39,954 nucleotides of DNA from a virus (Duplodnaviria; Heunggongvirae; Uroviricota; Caudoviricetes): positions 1-39,954 of the IMG/VR virus record IMGVR_UViG_2534681675_000013; one strand, 5' to 3'. Shown piece after piece: positions 6,543-36,441 of this stretch; position 1 is the stretch's first letter, and the number at the start of each line of letters is the position of its first letter. The translations under genes and the position numbers were made by a program. Below the pieces are notes generated by a model. It did no database searches. It saw nothing but the letters and a program-made list of their open reading frames with translations, and was not told the origin of the DNA.

Positions 6543-6617
6543 GGGTAACTCCTTATATTTGATTGCATAACGAAAACGCCTCGAGTGAAGCGTTATTGGT
6601 ATGCGGTAACGCAGCGC

Positions 6618-6986
6618 TCAGGCGGCTTTGATAGTCATATCATCTGAATCAAATATTCCTGATGTATCGATATCGGTAATTCTTATTCCTTCGCTACCAT
6701 CCATTGGAGGCCATCCTTCCTGACCATTTCCATCATTCCAGTCGAACTCACACACAACACCATATGCATTTAAGTCGCTTGAAATTGCTATAAGCAGAGC
6801 ATGTTGCGCCAGCATGATTAATACAGCATTTAATACAGAGCCGTGTTTATTGAGTCGGTATTCAGAGTCTGACCAGAAATTATTAATTTGGTGAAGTTTT
6901 TCCTCTGTCATTAAGTCATGGTCGATTTCAATTTCTATTGATGCTTTCCAGTCGTAATCAATGATGTATTTTTTGATGTTTGACAT
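6618..6986 (-). CDS. Hypothetical protein (122 aa) in the lambda ea10 position
   Basis: Located between the cIII-like gene and ral, as ea10 is in lambda; assignment by position and size only. Confidence 0.35.
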   Translation of the reverse strand: MSNIKKYIIDYDWKASIEIEIDHDLMTEEKLHQINNFWSDSEYRLNKHGSVLNAVLIMLAQHALLIAISSDLNAYGVVCEFDWNDGNGQEGWPPMDGSEGIRITDIDTSGIFDSDDMTIKAA

Positions 6987-7188
6987 CTATTCATATCCTC
7001 ACAGAAAAAAATCGCCCTCACACTGGAGGGCAAAGAAGATTTCCAATAATCAGAACAAGTCGGCTCCTGTTTAGTTACGAGCGACATTGCTCCGTGTATT
7101 CACTCGTTGGAATGAATACACAGTGCAGTGTTTATTCTGTTATTTATGCCAAAAATAAAGGCCACTATCAGGCAGCTTTGTTGTTCTG

Positions 7189-7368
7189 TTAACCAAGTTC
7201 TCTGGCAATCATTGCCGTCGTTCGTATTGCCCATTTATCGACATATTTCCCATCTTCCATTACAGGAAACATTTCTTCAGGCTTAACCATGCATTCCGAT
7301 TGCAGCTTGCATCCATTGCATCGCTTGAATTGTCCACACCATTGATTTTTATCAATAGTCGTAGTCAT
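7189..7368 (-). CDS. ral: Restriction alleviation protein Ral
   Basis: Hand-translated MTTTIDKNQWCGQFKRCNGCKLQSECMVKPEEMFPVMEDGKYVDKWAIRTTAMIARELG, which matches lambda Ral as I recall it; 59 aa, so absent from the ORF track. Confidence 0.6.
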   Translation of the reverse strand: MTTTIDKNQWCGQFKRCNGCKLQSECMVKPEEMFPVMEDGKYVDKWAIRTTAMIARELG

Positions 7369-7446
7369 ACGGATAGTCTTGGTATTGTTCCATCACATCC
7401 TGAGGATGCTCTTCGAACTCTTCAAATTCTTCTTCCATATATCACC

Positions 7447-7773
7447 TCAAATAAGTTGTTTGCTGCCTAATTTCATTTTCTGGCGACCAACACAAGTCAC
7501 ACCCATTTCACTGCGTGGCTTGCTGTACCATGTGCGCTGATTCTTGCGCTCAATACGCTGCAGGTTGCTTTCAATCTGTTCGTGGTATTCAGCCAGCACC
7601 GTAAGGTCTATCGGATTCAGTGCGCTTTCTACTCGTGATTTCGGTTTGCGATTCAGCGAGAGAATAGGGCGGTTAACTGGTTTTGCGCTTACCCCAACCA
7701 ACAGGGGATTTGCTGCTTTCCATTGAGCCTGTTTCTCTGCGCGACGTTCGCGGCGGCGTGTTTGTGCATCCAT
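7447..7773 (-). CDS. N: Antiterminator N
   Basis: Internal start MDAQTRRRERRAEKQAQWKAANPLLVGVSAKPVNRP..., near-identical to lambda N as recalled (arginine-rich boxB-binding motif). Confidence 0.9.
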   Translation of the reverse strand: MDAQTRRRERRAEKQAQWKAANPLLVGVSAKPVNRPILSLNRKPKSRVESALNPIDLTVLAEYHEQIESNLQRIERKNQRTWYSKPRSEMGVTCVGRQKMKLGSKQLI

Positions 7774-7883
7774 CTGGATTCTCCTGTCAGTTAGCTTTGA
7801 GTAACGCGCCGTGATGCTTATCTCCACGGTTGCTGTCTTGCAGCTGCATTTCGCGCTACTCAAAGCCTTCTGCTTTGAATGCT

Positions 7884-7914
7884 GCCCTTCTTCAGGGCTA
7901 AATTTTTAAGAGCG
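7884..7914 (-). promoter_or_regulatory. nutL (boxB hairpin and boxA)
   Basis: Minus strand carries GCCCTGAAGAAGGGC (boxB) and CGCTCTTA (boxA) between pL and N. Confidence 0.7.
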
Positions 7915-7955
7915 TCACCTTCATGGTGGTCAGTGCGTCCTGCTGATGTGCTTAG

Positions 7956-8016
7956 TATCACCGCCAGTGGTATTTGTGTCAACACCGCCAGAGATAGTTT
8001 ATCACCGCAGATGGTT
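7956..8016 (-). promoter_or_regulatory. oL1-oL2-oL3 operators with pL
   Basis: TATCACCGCCAGTGGTA, CAACACCGCCAGAGATA and TATCACCGCAGATGGTT read directly; these are the canonical lambda oL half-site pairs. Confidence 0.85.
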
Positions 8017-8061
8017 ATCTGTATGTTTTTTATATAGATTTATTTTTTGCAGGGTTGTGTG

Positions 8062-8069
8062 GATTGGGA
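8062..8069. repeat. Left copy of 8-bp target-site duplication GATTGGGA
   Basis: GATTGGGA immediately precedes the IS left end and recurs immediately after the right end. Confidence 0.7.
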
Positions 8070-8154
8070 GTAAGCGTAAACCGACCGCCGTATGTAGCCA
8101 TTAGACAAGAATTGGTAACTTAGACGCCCATCTGACACAGACGGACATCTAAGT

Positions 8155-8574
8155 ATGGAATTACAGGACTGGCGAAAAGAACCTCGTAAAAAGTATTCGA
8201 ATGAATTCAAACTTCGTATGGTTGAACTGGCATCACAACCCGGTGCTTGTGTGGCTCAGATTGCACGAGAAAATGGCGTCAATGATAATGTTATTTTCAA
8301 ATGGCTCAGACTCTGGCAAAACGAAGGGCGTATATCACGGCGTCTTCCGGTGACAACCACTTCTGATGCAGGCCTTGAATTATTACCTGTAGAGATAACC
8401 TCTGATGAGCCGAAAGAACCGATGGCTGCTCTTACTCCGCCCTTATCCACTCAGACTACTGTCAGTGCCAGCTCCTGCAAGGTGGAGTTCCGTCACGGTA
8501 ACATGACGCTGGAAAATCCTTCACCAGAGCTGCTCACTGTATTGATTCGTGAACTGACCGGGAGGGGAAGATGA
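8155..8574 (+). CDS. tnpA: IS66 accessory protein TnpA (orf1)
   Basis: 139 aa, first ORF of the element; ATGA-coupled to the next ORF. Confidence 0.8.
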   Translation: MELQDWRKEPRKKYSNEFKLRMVELASQPGACVAQIARENGVNDNVIFKWLRLWQNEGRISRRLPVTTTSDAGLELLPVEITSDEPKEPMAALTPPLSTQTTVSASSCKVEFRHGNMTLENPSPELLTVLIRELTGRGR

Positions 8575-8920
8575 TCTCACTCCCATCCGGTACCCGTATC
8601 TGGCTCGTTGCCGGGATAACCGATATGCGTAAGTCTTTCAACGGGCTGGGTGAACAGGTACAGCATGTGTTAAATGTTAATCCCTTCTCCGGTCACCTGT
8701 TATCTTCCGTGGCCGACGGGGTGACACCGTTAAAATTCTTTGGGCTGATGCTGATGGTCTGTGCCTGTTCACCAAACGCCTGGAGGAAGGCCAGTTTATC
8801 TGGCCTGCGGTGCGTGACGGTAAGGTATCCATTACCCGCTCGCAACTGGCAATGCTCCTCGATAAGCTGGACTGGCGTCAGCCAAAAACATCCCGCCTTA
8901 ACGCCCTGACAATGTTGTAA
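8571..8920 (+). pseudogene. tnpB: IS66 TnpB (orf2), apparently frameshifted
   Basis: First 40 aa (MISLPSGTRIWLVAGITDMRKSFNGLGEQVQHVLNVNPFSGHL) are in one frame; the conserved C-terminus (...VKILWADADGLCLFTKRLEEGQFIWPAVRDGKVSITRSQLAMLLDKLDWRQPKTSRLNALTML) is in the +1 frame, consistent with a 1-nt deletion near 8700. Confidence 0.55.
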
Positions 8921-8950
8921 AAAACGCCTGGCCGCATTATAAAAACGGCC

Positions 8951-10543
8951 ATGAGTCAGAAATACCTCATTCGCATTGCAGAACTGGAAAGCCAGCTCCG
9001 TCAGAAAGACCAGCAACTGAGTCTGGTTGAAGAGACGGAGGCCTTCCTGCGCTCTGCACTGGCACGTGCCGAAGAAAAGATCGAAGAAGATGAACGGGAA
9101 ATAGAACATCTGCGGGCTCAGATAGAAAAACTGCGCCGGATGCTGTTCGGTACCCGTTCTGAAAAACTGCGTCGTGAAGTTGAACAGGCTGAGGCCCTGC
9201 TGAAACAACGCGAACAGGACAGCGATCGTTACAGTGGGCGGGAAGACGATCCACAGGTTCCCCGCCAGTTGCGACAGTCGCGCCATCGTCGTCCGTTACC
9301 GGCACACCTTCCCCGTGAAATACACCGTCTGGAGTCTGAAGAAAGTTGTTGCCCGGAATGTGGCGGCGAGCTGGATTATCTGGGGGAAGTCAGTACTGAG
9401 CAGCTGGAACTGGTGAGCAGCGCCCTGAAAGTGATCCGCACAGAACGGGTAAAAAAAGCCTGTACAAAATGTGACTGCATCATTGAAGCACCGGCGCCGT
9501 CCCGCCCGATAGAGCGTGGTATCGCGGGCCCCGGATTACTTGCCCGCGTGTTAACGGGAAAATACTGCGAACACCTGCCACTGTATCGTCAGAGTGAAAT
9601 CTTTGCCCGACAGGGTGTCGAACTGAGCCGTGCATTACTCTCCAACTGGGTTGACGCGTGCTGCCAGTTAATGATGCCGCTGAATGATGCCCTGTACCGT
9701 TATGTGATGAATACCCGCAAGCTTCACACTGACGACACACCGGTAAAGGTACTGGCACCGGGCTTGAAAAAGACGAAAACAGGGCGCATCTGGACGTATG
9801 TCCGGGATGATCGCAATGCGGGTTCGTCATCTCCTCCGGCGGTCTGGTTCGCGTACTCACCGAACCGGCAGGGGAAACACCCGGAGCAACACCTCCGCCC
9901 CTTCCGGGGTATCCTGCAGGCGGATGCGTTCACAGGTTATGACAGGCTGTTCAGTGCAGAACGTGAAGGTGGTGCGCTGACAGAAGTTGCGTGCTGGGCC
10001 CATGCCCGGAGAAAAATCCACGATGTATACATCAGCAGCAAAAGTGCGACGGCAGAAGAAGCCCTGAAGCGAATCAGTGAACTGTACGCCATCGAGGATG
10101 AAATACGGGGATTACCAGAGTCAGAGCGTCTTGCAGTCAGACAGCAGCGAAGCAAAGCGTTACTGACGTCGCTGCATGAATGGATGGTGGAGAAGAATGG
10201 CACGCTGTCGAAAAAATCCAGACTGGGCGAAGCGTTCAGCTATGTACTGAATCAGTGGGACGCCCTCTGTTATTACAGTGATGACGGACTGGCGGAGACG
10301 GACAATAACACAGCGGAAAGAGCGCTTCGTGCAGTCTGTCTTGGAAAGAAAAATTACGTGTTCTTCGGTAGCGATCACGGTGGCGAGCGTGGTGCACTGC
10401 TATACGGGCTGATCGGCACCTGCCGTCTGAACGGTATCGATCCGGAAGCGTATCTGCGCCATATTCTGAGCGTACTGCCGGAATGGCCCTCCAACCGTGT
10501 TGACGAACTCCTGCCATGGAACGTGGTTCTCACCAATAAATAA
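8951..10543 (+). CDS. tnpC: IS66 transposase TnpC
   Basis: 530 aa; cysteine cluster CPECGGEL...CTKCDC and a long conserved core typical of IS66 transposases. Confidence 0.9.
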   Translation: MSQKYLIRIAELESQLRQKDQQLSLVEETEAFLRSALARAEEKIEEDEREIEHLRAQIEKLRRMLFGTRSEKLRREVEQAEALLKQREQDSDRYSGREDDPQVPRQLRQSRHRRPLPAHLPREIHRLESEESCCPECGGELDYLGEVSTEQLELVSSALKVIRTERVKKACTKCDCIIEAPAPSRPIERGIAGPGLLARVLTGKYCEHLPLYRQSEIFARQGVELSRALLSNWVDACCQLMMPLNDALYRYVMNTRKLHTDDTPVKVLAPGLKKTKTGRIWTYVRDDRNAGSSSPPAVWFAYSPNRQGKHPEQHLRPFRGILQADAFTGYDRLFSAEREGGALTEVACWAHARRKIHDVYISSKSATAEEALKRISELYAIEDEIRGLPESERLAVRQQRSKALLTSLHEWMVEKNGTLSKKSRLGEAFSYVLNQWDALCYYSDDGLAETDNNTAERALRAVCLGKKNYVFFGSDHGGERGALLYGLIGTCRLNGIDPEAYLRHILSVLPEWPSNRVDELLPWNVVLTNK

Positions 10544-10573
10544 GCGTCAATACGGTGCTCCGTTGACGCTTAC

Positions 10574-10581
10574 GATTGGGA
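10574..10581. repeat. Right copy of 8-bp target-site duplication GATTGGGA
   Basis: Exact repeat of 8062-8069 directly after the IS right end. Confidence 0.7.
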
Positions 10582-10689
10582 AGGTGATCGAGAGATCTGA
10601 ATTGCGATGTTTAGTGAGTTGTATCTATTAATTTTCAAATAAATACAATTGGTTATGTGTTCTTGGGTGAGGGGGATCGTGAGGCAAAG

Positions 10690-10715
10690 AAAACCCGGCT
10701 CTGTGGCCGGGGTAT
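10690..10715 (-). terminator. Rho-independent terminator of the leftward cI operon
   Basis: Minus-strand hairpin CCCGGCCACAGAGCCGGG followed by a T-rich run, directly downstream of the gene at 10720-11562; the flanking sequence resembles the lambda region downstream of rexB. Confidence 0.6.
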
Positions 10716-10719
10716 GCAT

Positions 10720-11562
10720 TTATGGTTTTTTTTGGTCGTGCTTTGCTAGGGCTTTATGAGTTTTCTTAATGCTGCTTCTAACTTTCTGAATTTTTTCTTG
10801 GGAAAGTTTTATGTTTTCAGGGGCTGTTCCAGTGTTAGAAATCATTACATTGCGAACAGATCTCCCTACGGTCTCAGCAGCATTCTCTAGTTGAGACTGT
10901 CCCTTCAGGTTCTGGTTTCTGATTCTTGCTTCTGTCTGTGTAATTCTGAATATATTGGCCGCGAGCTCTTCGCTTCCCATGAAGTCAAGCATCGTTCCAT
11001 CTTTTTTAGTTAGGCCTTTTCGAGCTTTCAACTGTGAGAGATTCATATTGTACATCCCACGGTAGCCCGCATTTTGAAATAGACCATAGTCGACTACTCC
11101 GTGTTTATGGGCTACATGACTGAGAGTTTTCTCTCTAGATGTAATCTCGCCACGCAAATAAACTCGATTAACTGCGTCATGGTTATGATATGTAGTGTGT
11201 ATTTCTGCTGCGAGCCCAGCAAAATAAGCTTGTGCATTTGCAACTTTTTGATTGCTGATGTCACCATTCATTACAATCAGATAACAAGCGAAACGAGTTA
11301 ATTTAAAGTCATTTTTCGCATTTTCTGAAGGCATCTGGATGAAGTTATCGTATACAGGGATATCGAGGCTCACACATACAGATGTAGCTTTGTTGATGGC
11401 TTTCAATATCTGATCCATGCCATTATATCCAAGCATCATCGCTAAATCAGATGCAAACCAATAGGTAACACCGTTTTCTCTAGCGAAATCATCAAATGTT
11501 AACTGTGATGTGTCATCGAAAACAGTAATTTGCCTACTCATATCACACCCGAACTTACTCAT
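10720..11562 (-). CDS. DinD/RhuM-like protein with Bro-N-like N-terminus, in the lambda rexAB slot
   Basis: 280 aa; N-terminal YWFASDLAMMLGY fits the Bro-N pattern; central and C-terminal regions (GLFQNAGYRGMYN, SEELAANIFRITQTE) resemble DinD-family proteins as I recall them. Family call is from memory. Confidence 0.6.
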   Translation of the reverse strand: MSKFGCDMSRQITVFDDTSQLTFDDFARENGVTYWFASDLAMMLGYNGMDQILKAINKATSVCVSLDIPVYDNFIQMPSENAKNDFKLTRFACYLIVMNGDISNQKVANAQAYFAGLAAEIHTTYHNHDAVNRVYLRGEITSREKTLSHVAHKHGVVDYGLFQNAGYRGMYNMNLSQLKARKGLTKKDGTMLDFMGSEELAANIFRITQTEARIRNQNLKGQSQLENAAETVGRSVRNVMISNTGTAPENIKLSQEKIQKVRSSIKKTHKALAKHDQKKP

Positions 11563-11642
11563 CGATTTTCCCTTATATTAATATAATGTGGATAGTTTGT
11601 CGCCAACTCGCTAAAGTTATTCATTATGAGGTTTGCCATCCA

Positions 11643-12359
<717 letters not shown>

Positions 12360-12366
12360 TTAAATC

Positions 12367-12430
12367 TATCACCGCAAGGGATAAATATCTAACACCGTGC
12401 GTGTTGACTGTTTTACCTCTAGCGGTGATA
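12367..12430. promoter_or_regulatory. oR3-oR2-oR1 with divergent pRM and pR
   Basis: TATCACCGCAAGGGATA (oR3), TAACACCGTGCGTGTTG (oR2), TACCTCTAGCGGTGATA (oR1-like) plus TTGACT and GATAAT pR hexamers upstream of cro. Confidence 0.9.
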
Positions 12431-12447
12431 ATAGTTGCATGTACTAA

Positions 12448-12657
<210 letters not shown>

Positions 12658-12664
12658 ATAACCC

Positions 12665-12697
12665 CGCTCTTACACATCCCAGCCCTGAAAAAGGGCA
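12665..12697 (+). promoter_or_regulatory. nutR (boxA and boxB)
   Basis: CGCTCTTA followed by the hairpin AGCCCTGAAAAAGGGCA between cro and cII. Confidence 0.7.
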
Positions 12698-12775
12698 TCA
12701 AATTAAACCACACCTATGGTGTATGCATTTATTTGCATACATTCAATCAATTGTTATCTAAGGAAATACTTACAT

Positions 12776-13069
12776 ATGGTTCGTGCAAACAAACGCAACG
12801 AGGCTCTACGAATCGAGAGTGCGTTGCTTAACAAAATCGCAATGCTTGGAACTGAGAAGACAGCGGAAGCTGTGGGAGTTGATAAGTCGCAGATCAGCAG
12901 GTGGAAGAGGGATTGGATTCCAAAGTTCTCAATGCTGCTTGCTGTTCTTGAATGGGGCGTCGTTGACGACGATATGGCTCGATTGGCGCGACAAGTTGCT
13001 GCGATTCTCACCAATAAAAAACGCCCGGCGGCAACCGAGCGTTCTGAACAAATCCAGATGGAGTTCTGA
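12776..13069 (+). CDS. cII: Transcriptional activator CII
   Basis: Internal start MVRANKRNEALRIESALLNKIAMLGTEKTAEAVGVDKSQISRWKRDWIPKF..., matching lambda CII (97 aa). Confidence 0.95.
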   Translation: MVRANKRNEALRIESALLNKIAMLGTEKTAEAVGVDKSQISRWKRDWIPKFSMLLAVLEWGVVDDDMARLARQVAAILTNKKRPAATERSEQIQMEF

Positions 13070-13091
13070 GGTCATTACTGGAACTATCAAC
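13013..13091 (-). ncRNA. oop: oop antisense RNA
   Basis: Minus-strand sequence ending in a GC-rich hairpin plus U-run overlaps the cII 3' end, matching the lambda oop region as recalled; ends approximate. Confidence 0.55.
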
Positions 13092-13101
13092 AGGAGTCAT
13101 T

Positions 13102-14001
13102 ATGACAAATACAGCAAAAATACTCAACTTCGGCAGAGGTAACTTTGCCGGACAGGAGCGTAATGTGGCAGATCTCGATGATGGTTACGCCAGACTATCA
13201 AATATGCTGCTTGAGGCTTATTCGGGCGCAGATCTGACCAAGCGACAGTTTAAAGTGCTGCTTGCCATTCTGCGTAAAACCTATGGGTGGAATAAACCAA
13301 TGGACAGAATCACCGATTCTCAACTTAGCGAGATTACAAAGTTACCTGTCAAACGGTGCAATGAAGCCAAGTTAGAACTCGTCAGAATGAATATTATCAA
13401 GCAGCAAGGCGGCATGTTTGGACCAAATAAAAACATCTCAGAATGGTGTATCCCTCAAAACGAGGGAAAATCCCCTAAAACGAGGGATAAAACATCCCTC
13501 AAATTGGGGGATTGCTATCCCTCAAAACAGGGGGACACAAAAGACACTATTACAAAAGAAAAAAGAAAAGATTATTCGTCCGAGAATTCTGGCGAATCCT
13601 CTGACCAGCCAGAAAACGATCTTTCTGTGGTTAAACCGGATGCTGCAATTCAGAGCGGCAGCAAGTGGGGAACAGCAGAAGACCTGACCGCCGCAGAGTG
13701 GATGTTTGACATGGTGAAGACCATCGCGCCATCAGCCAGAAAACCGAATTTTGCTGGGTGGGCTAACGATATCCGCCTGATGCGTGAACGTGACGGACGT
13801 AACCACCGCGATATGTGTGTGCTTTTCCGCTGGGCCTGCCAGGACAACTTCTGGTCCGGTAACGTGCTGAGTCCGGCCAAACTCCGCGACAAGTGGACCC
13901 AGCTCGAAATCAACCGTAACAAGCAACAGGCAGGCGTGACAGCCAGCAAACCAAAACTCGACCTGACAAACACTGACTGGATTTACGGGGTGGATTTATG
14001 A
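13102..14001 (+). CDS. O: Replication initiator O
   Basis: 299 aa matching lambda O as recalled; contains the ori iterons internally. Confidence 0.95.
   Translation: MTNTAKILNFGRGNFAGQERNVADLDDGYARLSNMLLEAYSGADLTKRQFKVLLAILRKTYGWNKPMDRITDSQLSEITKLPVKRCNEAKLELVRMNIIKQQGGMFGPNKNISEWCIPQNEGKSPKTRDKTSLKLGDCYPSKQGDTKDTITKEKRKDYSSENSGESSDQPENDLSVVKPDAAIQSGSKWGTAEDLTAAEWMFDMVKTIAPSARKPNFAGWANDIRLMRERDGRNHRDMCVLFRWACQDNFWSGNVLSPAKLRDKWTQLEINRNKQQAGVTASKPKLDLTNTDWIYGVDL
13450..13533 (+). repeat. ori-lambda iterons (four about 19-bp repeats) followed by AT-rich region
   Basis: Four tandem copies of ATCCCTCAAAACGAGGGA-like units inside O, followed by an A/T-rich stretch. Confidence 0.8.
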
Positions 14002-14699
14002 AAAACATCGCCGCACAGATGGTTAACTTTGACCGTGAGCAGATGCGTCGGATCGCCAACAACATGCCGGAACAGTACGACGAAAAGCCGCAGGTACAAC
14101 AGGTAGCGCAGATCATCAATGGTGTGTTCAGCCAGTTACTGGCAACTTTCCCGGCGAGCCTAGCTAACCGGGACCAGAACGAACTGAACGAAATCCGCCG
14201 CCAGTGGGTGCTGGCTTTCCGGGAAAACGGGATCACCACAATGGAACAGGTTAACGCAGGAATGCGCGTAGCCCGTCGGCAGAATCGACCATTTCTGCCA
14301 TCACCCGGGCAGTTTGTTGCATGGTGCCGGGAAGAAGCATCCGTTATCGCCGGACTGCCAAACGTCAGCGAGCTGGTTGATATGGTTTACGAGTATTGCC
14401 GGAAGCGAGGCCTGTATCCGGATGCGGAGTCTTATCCGTGGAAATCAAACGCGCACTACTGGCTGGTTACCAACCTGTATCAGAACATGCGGGCCAATGC
14501 GCTTACTGATGCGGAATTACGCCGTAAGGCCGCAGATGAGCTTGTCCATATGACTGCGAGAATTAACCGTGGTGAGGCGATCCCTGAACCAGTAAAACAA
14601 CTTCCTGTCATGGGCGGTAGACCTCTAAATCGTGCACAGGCTCTGGCGAAGATCGCAGAAATCAAAGCTAAGTTCGGACTGAAAGGAGCAAGTGTATGA
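13998..14699 (+). CDS. P: Replication protein P (helicase loader)
   Basis: 233 aa matching lambda P as recalled; ATGA-coupled to O. Confidence 0.95.
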   Translation: MKNIAAQMVNFDREQMRRIANNMPEQYDEKPQVQQVAQIINGVFSQLLATFPASLANRDQNELNEIRRQWVLAFRENGITTMEQVNAGMRVARRQNRPFLPSPGQFVAWCREEASVIAGLPNVSELVDMVYEYCRKRGLYPDAESYPWKSNAHYWLVTNLYQNMRANALTDAELRRKAADELVHMTARINRGEAIPEPVKQLPVMGGRPLNRAQALAKIAEIKAKFGLKGASV

Positions 14700-14986
14700 C
14701 GGGCAAAGAGGCAATTATTCATTACCTGGGGACGCATAATAGCTTCTGTGCGCCGGACGTTGCCGCGCTAACAGGCGCAACAGTAACCAGCATAAATCAG
14801 GCCGCGGCTAAAATGGCACGGGCAGGTCTTCTGGTTATCGAAGGTAAGGTCTGGCGAACGGTGTATTACCGGTTTGCTACCAGGGAAGAACGGGAAGGAA
14901 AGATGAGCACGAACCTGATTTTTAAGGAGTGTCGCCAGAGTGCCGCGATGAAACGGGTATTGGCGGTATATGGAGTTAAAAGATGA
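14696..14986 (+). CDS. ren: Ren
   Basis: 96 aa MTGKEAIIHYLGTHNSFCAPDVAALTG..., matching lambda Ren. Confidence 0.9.
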   Translation: MTGKEAIIHYLGTHNSFCAPDVAALTGATVTSINQAAAKMARAGLLVIEGKVWRTVYYRFATREEREGKMSTNLIFKECRQSAAMKRVLAVYGVKR

Positions 14987-15059
14987 CCATCTACATCACT
15001 GAGCTAATAACAGGCCTGCTGGTAATCGCAGGCCTTTTTATTTGGGGGAGAGGGAAGTC

Positions 15060-15500
15060 ATGAAAAAACTAACCTTTGAAATTCGATCTCCAGCACATCA
15101 GCAAAACGCTATTCACGCAGTACAGCAAATCCTTCCAGACCCAACCAAACCAATCGTAGTAACCATTCAGGAACGCAACCGCAGCTTAGACCAAAACAGG
15201 AAGCTATGGGCCTGCTTAGGTGACGTCTCTCGTCAGGTTGAATGGCATGGTCGCTGGCTGGATGCAGAAAGCTGGAAGTGTGTGTTTACCGCAGCATTAA
15301 AGCAGCAGGATGTTGTTCCTAACCTTGCCGGGAATGGCTTTGTGGTAATAGGCCAGTCAACCAGCAGGATGCGTGTAGGCGAATTTGCGGAGCTATTAGA
15401 GCTTATACAGGCATTCGGTACAGAGCGTGGCGTTAAGTGGTCAGACGAAGCGAGACTGGCTCTGGAGTGGAAAGCGAGATGGGGAGATCGGGCTGCATGA
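15060..15500 (+). CDS. ninB: NinB
   Basis: Internal start MKKLTFEIRSPAHQQNAIHAVQQILPD... preceded by GGGAGAGGGAAG; matches lambda NinB (146 aa). Confidence 0.9.
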   Translation: MKKLTFEIRSPAHQQNAIHAVQQILPDPTKPIVVTIQERNRSLDQNRKLWACLGDVSRQVEWHGRWLDAESWKCVFTAALKQQDVVPNLAGNGFVVIGQSTSRMRVGEFAELLELIQAFGTERGVKWSDEARLALEWKARWGDRAA

Positions 15501-16024
15501 CTATCAAATCAAATACGCCAGCACACGACAAGGACTGCTGGCAAACGCCGCTTTGGCTTTTTGATGCACTGGATATTGAGTTTGGATTCTGGCTGGATTC
15601 AGCTGCGAGCGACAAAAACGCTCTGTGCGCTCACTGGCTAACTGAGGTCGACGACGCGCTCAATTCTGAGTGGGTAAGCCACGGTGCAATCTGGAATAAC
15701 CCACCGTACAGCAATATCAGGCCGTGGGTGGAAAAAGCCGCTGAGCAGTGCATACAACAGCGACAGACGGTAGTGATGCTTGTGCCAGAGGATATGTCAG
15801 TCGGATGGTTCAGCAAGGCTCTGGAGAGTGTTGACGAAGTTCGCATCATCACTGATGGACGGATTAATTTTATCGAACCATCGACAGGGCTGGAGAAGAA
15901 GGGAAACAGCAAAGGCTCCATGCTGCTGATTTGGCGACCGTTCATCAGTCCTCGACGGATGTTTACTACCGTATCCAAAGCGGCATTGATGGCGATCGGG
16001 CAGGGCATCAGGAGGGCGGCATGA
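15497..16024 (+). CDS. Phage N6-adenine DNA methyltransferase (Dam-like), in place of ninC
   Basis: Start [29 protein letters not shown]-coupled to ninB; catalytic NPPY motif visible (WNNPPYS). Confidence 0.75.
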
Positions 16025-16197
16025 GGCGACAGCGACGAAGTATCACCGACATCATCTGCGAAAACTGCAAATACCTTCCAACGAAACGCTCCAGAAATAA
16101 ACCCAAGCCAATCCCAAAAGAATCTGACGTAAAAACCTTCAACTACACGGCTCACCTGTGGGATATCCGGTGGCTAAGACATCGTGCGAGGAAATGA
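16021..16197 (+). CDS. ninE: NinE
   Basis: Internal start [58 protein letters not shown], matching lambda NinE; ATGA-coupled to the methyltransferase. Confidence 0.7.
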
Positions 16198-18757: not shown

Positions 18758-18832
18758 GGGTTAGTCGTATAAAGGTCATTACGGAAGGCTGTTAACCTTC
18801 TTATCGTGGTTCGAGTCCACGCTGTCCCGCCA
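18758..18832 (+). tRNA. tRNA-like gene, anticodon GTT (Asn), one acceptor-stem mismatch
   Basis: Hand-folded cloverleaf: anticodon stem GAAGG/CCTTC with loop CTGTTAA, T-arm CGTGG-TTCGAGT-CCACG, 3' CCA encoded; acceptor stem GGGTTAG/CTGTCCC has one T-T mismatch. Coordinates within 1-2 nt. Confidence 0.5.
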
Positions 18833-18837
18833 AACAT

Positions 18838-18913
18838 GCTGGTTTAGCTCCAATGGTAGAGCGGTCGCCTTGTAAGCGAATGGGTAGCGGTTCAAGTCCG
18901 TTAACCAGCACCA
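18838..18913 (+). tRNA. tRNA-like gene, anticodon TGT (Thr)
   Basis: Hand-folded: perfect 7-bp acceptor stem GCTGGTT/AACCAGC, D-arm GCTC-CAATGGTA-GAGC, anticodon loop CTTGTAA, T-arm AGCGG-TTCAAGT-CCGTT, discriminator A plus CCA. Confidence 0.55.
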
Positions 18914-35472: not shown

Positions 35473-36441
35473 ATGACTGAAAAGAAAAGTGGCGAAGGGA
35501 AAGCTAAGGGCGGGATCGCTCGCGCAAAGTCGCTGACTAAAGAGCAGCGTTCTGAAATAGCAAAGAAAGCAGCTGCTGCAAGATGGAAAAGTAAGATTCT
35601 CAGGGCAACTCATCGTGGTAACTTTTTAGATGATTTTGGCATTGATGCTGAATGTTATGTACTGGATGACGAGTCGAAAACTGTCGTTGTTACGAAAACT
35701 GGATTATCTCAGTTGCTAGGGATTGGTGAACATGCCAGGGATTTAGATCAACTGCTTGGCGCTCAGTATATGAGCAAATACCGAGATCTAGAATTGCAGC
35801 GAAAAATGGAAAATCCCTATAAATTTCAACTTACTTCGAAGTCTAAAACCGTTCATCAAGCGTTAGGTTATGACATTACAGCAATTGTTGATATTGGTAG
35901 GGCACTAATAGAAGCCAAAGATAATGACGATCTACCACAATCACGGTTAAAGGCAGCCGCCGCAGCACAGAGACTTATTAATGCCTCCGCTAAGGCGGGA
36001 ATTAAGGGGGTTGCGTATGCGCTTGCTGGTTATCGTCCAGAAGTTCAGGCTGTCATTGACGAGTTCAAAGCGTTTGTTCGTGAAGAGGCTCGTCAATATG
36101 AAAAGGAATTTCCAGATGAGCTATACGAGGAGTGGTATCGACTGTACGGCCTGAATAGGCCAGAGAAAGGACGGCCTATTCGTTTTGGGCAGCTAACCAA
36201 CATGCAGATATACACCCCGCTAGCAAAGAGTAAAGGTAAAATCCTTGAACAGATTCGAGCCAGCCGAGACGAGAACGGAAAACAATCTGATAAGTTGCAT
36301 CTGTTCCTTTCTGAAATTGGTGTCAAGGCTTTGCGTCAGCATATCGGTAAGCTTCTTGGGGTCGCAGCGATGAGTGAGACAAGAGAAGAATACGAAAAAG
36401 GAATAGAAAAGGTTTTTGGAAGAATGAAACCAGAAATCTAA
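35473..36441 (+). CDS. Hypothetical protein (323 aa) with basic DNA-binding-like N-terminus, cargo in the sieA slot
   Basis: Start MTEKKSGEGKAKGGIARAKSLTKEQRSEIAKKAAAARWKS after AAAGGTG; no family recognised with confidence; followed by a strong terminator. Confidence 0.6.
   Translation: MTEKKSGEGKAKGGIARAKSLTKEQRSEIAKKAAAARWKSKILRATHRGNFLDDFGIDAECYVLDDESKTVVVTKTGLSQLLGIGEHARDLDQLLGAQYMSKYRDLELQRKMENPYKFQLTSKSKTVHQALGYDITAIVDIGRALIEAKDNDDLPQSRLKAAAAAQRLINASAKAGIKGVAYALAGYRPEVQAVIDEFKAFVREEARQYEKEFPDELYEEWYRLYGLNRPEKGRPIRFGQLTNMQIYTPLAKSKGKILEQIRASRDENGKQSDKLHLFLSEIGVKALRQHIGKLLGVAAMSETREEYEKGIEKVFGRMKPEI

Follow-up and report, generated by a model that had tools for sequence, protein, structure and literature searches.

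The window analysed here is the whole of a 39,954-nucleotide stretch of viral DNA (IMG/VR record IMGVR_UViG_2534681675_000013). It corresponds to a mosaic P22-like prophage in which genes for the portal, P22-type coat, gp10, needle and ejection proteins are combined with lambda O/P replication genes and a lambda immunity region, and it carries an insertion sequence (IS) of the IS66 family within that region. A first-pass annotation, made from the letters alone, had described positions 8062–10581 as a 2.5-kb IS66-family element with tnpA, tnpB, tnpC and typical ends, flanked by a perfect direct repeat. Both descriptions hold. The interval is made up of the IS proper (8070–10573; 2504 bp, ISEc23-like, all three genes on the + strand) and two flanking 8-bp duplications.

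The left end of the element at 8070 reads GTAAGCGTAAACC and the right end at 10573 reads GTTGACGCTTAC, with the left terminus beginning GTAAGCGT and the right terminus closing with ACGCTTAC. The terminal inverted repeats, which were the longest inverted pair in the repeat search, are imperfect (24 nt, 20/24 complementary, 83%), and both begin with GTAAGCGT. Terminal inverted repeats of the IS66 family are about 20–30 bp long and, in the consensus wording of ISfinder, start with GTAAGCG. No further copies of the IS ends were found elsewhere within the window. The flanking duplication GATTGGGA is perfect (8/8), an identity expected by chance at fixed positions with a probability of about 1.5e-5, and 8 bp is the usual length of IS66 target duplications (PMC6778807).

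Family models agree with the assignment. TnpA matched Pfam HTH_Tnp_1 (E=6.6e-13) and NCBIfam IS66_ISRel24_TnpA (NF047595; 81.2 bits, cut-off 74), and an identical TnpA protein is present on 986 contigs elsewhere. TnpC matched Pfam DDE_Tnp_IS66 (PF03050, E=8.6e-98) over profile positions 1–283 of 284 and NCBIfam transpos_IS66 (NF033517) with 447.6 bits against a cut-off of 180; it also contains the LZ, zinc-finger and C-terminal domains recognised by Pfam, and the identical protein occurs on 55 contigs. Members of the 90%-identity cluster of TnpC are named by NCBI 'IS66-like element ISEc23 family transposase' and one member of the TnpA cluster is labelled ISEc8, the ISEc23 label being taken from the TnpC cluster names and not from an ISfinder reference. 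Among the features that define the family, an IS66 catalytic TnpC, a coupled tnpA, terminal inverted repeats and an 8-bp duplication are present, and an intact tnpB (PF05717 / NF033819) is missing. The copy is best classed as an IS66-family member by descent, but a mutant one.

Inside the element, a 17-nt inverted repeat at 8118–8154 (82% complementary, 3-nt loop) abuts the ATG of tnpA at 8155. This hairpin is present in all identical IS copies and could be a translational or regulatory element of the IS.

Empty site and age of the insertion

The pre-insertion sequence was reconstructed by joining the left flank, one copy of the 8-mer and the right flank, and was compared with other records. 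In many prophages and phages with lambda immunity the match runs straight across the reconstructed junction. Phage HK542 (EF120458) reads GCAGGGTTGTGTGGATTGGGAAGGTGATCGAGAGATCTG, identical to the reconstruction, with GATTGGGA occurring once. A second empty site was reached via the BRO-family protein encoded between cI and the cI-operon terminator Timm: the near-identical prophage AP025754.1 (locus L048) has the same BRO gene and lambda cI, cro and N, and is without the IS. The left flank (window 6566–8069) aligns with L048 8486–6982 with 0 mismatches (1505 nt), and the right flank (window 10574–16194; 5621 nt) gives an ungapped alignment with L048 6989–1369, at 99.36% identity. The L048 ranges matched by the left and right flanks have exactly 8 bp in common, 6982–6989. 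Such a pairing of empty and filled sites is recognisable as the classical signature of transposition with target duplication, and the earlier statement that the DNA on both sides of the element is continuous is borne out by the contiguous empty sites of HK542 and AP025754.1.

A search for the IS–phage junction in 5,426 complete E. coli genomes, 50,697 phage records, the GTDB representative genomes, IMG/VR and the JGI metagenomes found no other copy. Since the immediate flanks are free of mismatches to an uninterrupted relative and none of these five collections contains the junction, the insertion appears to be recent, as had been proposed; the perfect duplication and the one-base difference from other IS copies (see below) also support a recent date. 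As the occupied site can be set beside an isogenic empty one, the locus offers a clean example of recent IS66-family transposition. The coordinates of the element and of the neighbouring control sites are collected in the table.

Table. Features of the IS66-family element and of the adjoining immunity region (window coordinates)
Feature	Position	Strand	Basis
Left target-site duplication copy, GATTGGGA	8062..8069	.	read directly; single in HK542 and AP025754.1 (L048 6982–6989)
Left terminal inverted repeat (IRL), GTAAGCGTAAACCGACCGCCGTAT	8070..8093	+	repeat search, paired with 10550–10573
tnpA, 139 aa, intact; TGA stop overlaps tnpB ATG (ATGA 8571–8574)	8155..8574	+	Pfam, NCBIfam
tnpB, frameshifted pseudogene	8571..8920	+	comparison with intact copies L001 and L002, three-frame translation
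1-nt deletion site in tnpB, TT here, TTT in all other copies examined	8700..8701	+	copy comparison
tnpC, 530-aa DDE transposase, intact	8951..10543	+	Pfam, NCBIfam
Right terminal inverted repeat (IRR), reverse complement GTAAGCGTCAACGGAGCACCGTAT	10550..10573	-	repeat search
Right target-site duplication copy, GATTGGGA	10574..10581	.	read directly
pL promoter (-10 7954–7959; -35 TTGACA 7977–7982), intact	7954..8016 (with operators)	-	promoter scan, HK542 annotation
Operators oL1, oL2 and oL3, intact	oL1 7956–7972; oL2 7980–7996; oL3 8000–8016	-	alignment to lambda J02459
Timm, cI-operon terminator, intact; stem-loop 10694–10711, then T-tract TTTTCTTT	10684..10711	-	terminator scan

The tnpB deletion allele

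In tnpB the window reads CACCTG-TT-ATCTTCC where two otherwise identical 2505-bp copies have TTT. Codons 1–43 of the 116 are correct and the frame is lost after them; 69 unrelated codons follow, ending at TGA 8907–8909, which gives a product of 112 aa compared with 116 aa for intact TnpB. The conserved C-terminal 72 codons (FIFRGRRGDTVKILWADADGL...NALTML) continue to the natural TAA at 8918–8920 in a frame offset by +2 (= −1) from the tnpB ATG. A switch of the tnpB reading frame near 8700 and a 1-nt deletion had already been suspected, and alignment to the two intact copies confirms both; the C-terminus, which had been placed in the +1 frame, has to be reassigned. The deletion removes 62% of the accessory protein TnpB. 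The mutant ORF (open reading frame) scored 32.5 bits with NCBIfam IS66_TnpB (NF033819), below the cut-off of 50 and over profile positions 1–35 of 90, compared with 119.4 bits for the intact protein with the same model, and its match to Pfam PF05717 is limited to positions 2–36 of 101, the first third of the model. Because the aberrant ORF stops 11 nt before the natural stop, ribosome flow toward the tnpC ATG (8951) should scarcely change. Programmed frameshifting in tnpB was considered and ruled out, all other copies having an uninterrupted 116-codon ORF; the IS66 family is described, in a passage of PMC3469429 that cites Han 2001, as using translational coupling, not programmed frameshifting.

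The deletion allele was looked for among other copies of the element. Megablast of the IS against the 5,426 complete E. coli genomes gave a match in 4,787 (median 3 places per genome), and the best 30 matches all span 2505 bases against the 2504-base query. The two intact 2505-bp copies used for comparison, one on the chromosome of strain 06-00048 and one on plasmid pMFDS1022581_1, are mutually identical, and one T is the sole difference between them and the window IS. The plasmid copy is located within traD and has an 8-bp duplication of its own, CATGATAT, and this sequence variant has therefore transposed. The 112-aa mutant TnpB product was absent from a 15-billion-protein collection and from the gene-position index. 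A 24-nt exact pattern with the deletion had no match in the GTDB representative genomes, the JGI metagenomes or IMG/VR; as a positive control, the intact-allele pattern matched 37 IMG/VR loci. An 81-nt probe over the deletion hit 5,153 places in 2,801 E. coli records with a per-record best identity of at most 98.8%, a ceiling that means that every best match carries the extra T and that the deletion allele is absent from these records.

A unique allele fits either a new mutation or a sequencing error. If the IS insertion is real and the frameshift is a sequencing or consensus error in the T-run, then the copy would be an intact, autonomous ISEc23-like element; the change is indeed a 1-nt difference in homopolymer length, it is all that separates the window IS from the intact copies, and it is found nowhere else, as an error would be. 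Yet the T-run is only 3 nt long and fresh inactivating mutations in IS copies are common. The quality of the surrounding sequence also argues the other way. Against prophage YZ22PE165, which is 96–98% identical, there are 0 gaps over 6.6 kb of morphogenesis genes and over 1.4 kb of cI–cII. Other indels relative to this prophage fall in divergent or intergenic stretches, mostly as nearby compensating pairs, and over about 12 kb of conserved coding DNA none is left uncompensated. For 13 other proteins of the window (5,011 aa in all), identical sequences have been recorded elsewhere. This evidence speaks against a generally error-prone assembly. We regard an error at this position as unlikely and the tnpB deletion as probably real.

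Position in the immunity region and predicted effect on the oL–oR loop

The target 8-mer aligns to lambda 35697–35704, 46 bp past oL3 (lambda 35651), in the non-coding spacer between oL3 and Timm and about 110 bp from the latter. The IS lies after the cI-operon terminator and approximately 115–122 bp upstream of the pL start. Transcription of the cI operon and from pL runs leftward; the IS has the opposite orientation, with tnpC heading toward Timm. All genes, operators, promoters and terminators of the region are uninterrupted by the insertion. Both the annotation of lambda J02459 and the alignment to it support the operator positions, and oL1–3 and oR2–3 are identical to the lambda operator 17-mers. 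Timm RNA folds with −12.6 kcal/mol and is homologous to the annotated Timm of HK542, cI encodes a 237-aa protein with HTH_3 and Peptidase_S24 domains, and N has an N36 domain. The region combines lambda-specificity operators, cI, cro and N and belongs to the lambda immunity type.

The AT-rich tract between oL3 and the insertion (8017–8050) is untouched and stays on the oL side. It broadly corresponds to the OL-proximal UP/IHF region, which is reported to stimulate pL and, via the loop, PRM (PMC3708714; PMC8053113). A consensus scan for an outward promoter from the IS found none, pL alone being detected. The first-pass annotation had located the element between oL3 and the cI-operon terminator and had pL–N and cI left intact, and in both respects it was right. 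Its further suggestion that the IS may alter local transcription finds no support in an element that is downstream of Timm, upstream of pL and devoid of an outward consensus promoter.

At the other operator, oR1 reads TACCTCTAGCGGTGATA (region 12367–12430), a single-base departure from the lambda 17-mer, and a further difference affects the base that follows the pR −10. A private operator mutation was considered and rejected, the oR1 and post-−10 variants being common to HK542 and two E. coli prophages. One change is private to the window, an A-to-G at 12409 within the pR spacer that separates oR2 from oR1.

The IS lengthens the centre-to-centre distance between oL2 and oR2 from 1898 to 4410 bp; the corresponding values are 2359 bp for lambda and 2077 bp for HK542. 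The sole predicted effect at the level of the phage is a longer CI-mediated oL–oR loop (1.9 to 4.4 kb), which should make looping modestly weaker. Loop occupancy was estimated as F=J/(J+I), with I of about 30 nM for lambda CI, J of 193 nM at 1.8 kb and an exponent of −1.054, J declining as a power law of distance, d^-1.054 (PMC5435920). The computed occupancy would drop from about 0.86 to about 0.71 with the IS, both values being extrapolated from reporter constructs. For reference, in vivo loop occupancy of wild-type lambda at 2.3 kb is 79% (PMC3708714), and regulation of PR and PRM persists when OL is positioned 3.8 kb away from OR, as shown with a hybrid lambda-186 CI repressor (PMC8053113).

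Could the insertion have been functionally selected, with the more than doubled oL–oR distance, or read-out from the IS, retuning the lysogenic switch or locking the prophage? The element would then be a natural spacer mutation of the lambda switch, with measurably weaker CI octamer looping and changed PRM autoregulation or more frequent spontaneous induction, and together with the 2.5-kb load it might leave the prophage trapped or unstable. In a P22-like genome packaged by the headful mechanism, 2.5 kb of additional DNA would cut into, or use up, the terminal redundancy, as in oversized P22 genomes. The oL2–oR2 spacing more than doubles, and looping matters to repression and PRM control (PMC3708714; PMC8053113). 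However, the predicted change in occupancy is small, looping regulation works at 3.8 kb in reporters, no outward consensus promoter is present and the AT-rich tract by oL3 is kept on the oL side. Moreover, the insertion is unique to this sequence, with no sign of spread or recurrence, and sister prophages often carry IS insertions elsewhere in their early regions, the pattern that neutral or mildly deleterious events would give. Selection of the insertion is improbable on this balance, and the model of a spacer mutation that alters the switch appears just as doubtful. Misplacement of a repeat into the prophage contig by the assembler, for which the multi-copy nature of IS66-family elements in most E. 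coli genomes (numbers above) would provide an occasion, is extremely improbable, as a misjoin would not yield a perfect 8-bp duplication at both termini of the element that is single in the empty site.

We conclude that the locus very probably records a recent insertion of an ISEc23-like element into the lambda-immunity spacer, and that this element is likely a non-autonomous passenger. An ISEc23-like IS66 element transposed into the non-coding oL3–Timm spacer of a P22-like prophage with lambda immunity, producing the 8-bp target duplication typical of the family. The insertion, its duplication, the empty site, the tnpB deletion and the intact neighbouring features can be read from the sequences; the loss of autonomous transposition and the effect on the loop are inferred from them. 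The landing site is transcriptionally quiet, so that the repressor gene, operators, pL and N remain untouched, and the IS may be tolerated as a passenger because it lies past the cI-operon terminator and upstream of the pL start. One T was probably lost from the TTT run of tnpB during or after insertion. With TnpB lost and TnpA, TnpC and both ends kept, the element could be mobilised in trans by an intact copy.

The copy is thus most likely non-autonomous. In IS679, tnpA, tnpB and tnpC were each reportedly necessary for transposition, according to the 2001 work of Han et al. That the copy may be transposition-defective, as first suggested, is a reasonable reading: the residual TnpB match (32.5 against a cut-off of 50 bits, positions 1–35 of 90) favours it, and it leans on the IS679 genetics and on the deletion being real. 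Several points weigh against this account as a whole. The requirement for TnpB is carried over from IS679, an element different from ISEc23, and may not apply here. The deletion falls in a homopolymer, albeit a short one of 3 nt, and may be a single assembly error. The loop-occupancy figures, as extrapolations from reporter constructs, may not describe the prophage. Finally, single-ORF IS66 members (the ISBst12 group) transpose without TnpB, and the requirement is not family-wide (PMC12898284).

The wider setting of the insertion is as follows. The end of the integrase ORF coincides with base 1 and the tailspike gene continues past the right edge, so that the prophage ends lie outside the window. 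Of 21 kb of the window, at most 80% is matched by any one complete E. coli genome, at 96–97% identity. Between cI and Timm, in the position of rexAB, a 280-aa BRO-N / DinD-like protein is encoded (10720–11562, −). It matches the PADLOC candidate defence family PDC-S13 (E=2e-86) and scored 198.6 bits with NCBIfam 'DNA damage-inducible protein D', below the cut-off of 242. In other prophages an identical BRO protein is found downstream of two repressor types, the 237-aa lambda cI and a 231/256-aa HTH_3–S24 repressor, and the gene looks like a mobile moron of immunity regions. Genes for tRNA-Asn(GTT) and tRNA-Thr(TGT) lie at 18758–18913 (+), just downstream of the Q-type antiterminator region, and are conserved in the YZ22PE165 prophage. 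Among ten loci that share the BRO gene, early-region IS were seen in L047 (11370–12843), L054 (8683–10484) and L056 (3117–4330); they are of the IS21 type (IstA/IstB) and the IS3 type, and one of them is inside the O replication gene. From these IS21 and IS3 elements in sister prophages it follows that IS insertions in BRO-carrying prophages are frequent.

The insertion is of a known kind: the element is a common E. coli IS with its wider family in most E. coli genomes, and the event is routine. New are this particular insertion and the tnpB allele alone, and knowledge of IS66 and of the lambda switch is unchanged. The spot within the lambda immunity region tolerates 2.5 kb of foreign DNA. For annotation, tnpB should be entered here as a pseudogene, and the finding has little importance beyond that. 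Provided that the source strain is at hand, the window prophage and an AP025754.1-type prophage could serve as a natural test pair for the relation between oL–oR distance and lysogen stability.

Comparison with known elements and lambda-type switches

Elements of the ISEc23/ISEc8 type from E. coli and Salmonella share with the window IS the tnpA–tnpB–tnpC order, the ATGA overlap, the GTAAGCGT termini and the 8-bp duplication. The window copy differs from them in being 2504 instead of 2505 bp long and in its frameshifted tnpB, and the ISfinder name given to it is provisional. IS679, from a plasmid of enteropathogenic E. coli, is an element distinct from the window IS, and the reported requirement for all three genes concerns IS679, not ISEc23. 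It is likewise a three-ORF IS66 element with an 8-bp duplication, and its proteins are made by translational coupling, as stated in a passage of PMC3469429.

The immunity region has close counterparts as well. Phages HK542, HK244, HK544 and mEp332 (GenBank EF120455-58) and prophage AP025754.1 have the same oL/pL, Timm, cI, oR and cro and the same oR1 variant TACCTCTAGCGGTGATA, and AP025754.1 also has the BRO-family gene of the window in the rex position. Unlike the window, all five have an uninterrupted oL3–Timm spacer. In engineered lambda constructs of the Dodd/Shearwin laboratory, the OL–OR distance was likewise changed by insertion of unrelated DNA; in contrast to these, the spacer described here is a natural IS in a prophage, known from its sequence alone.

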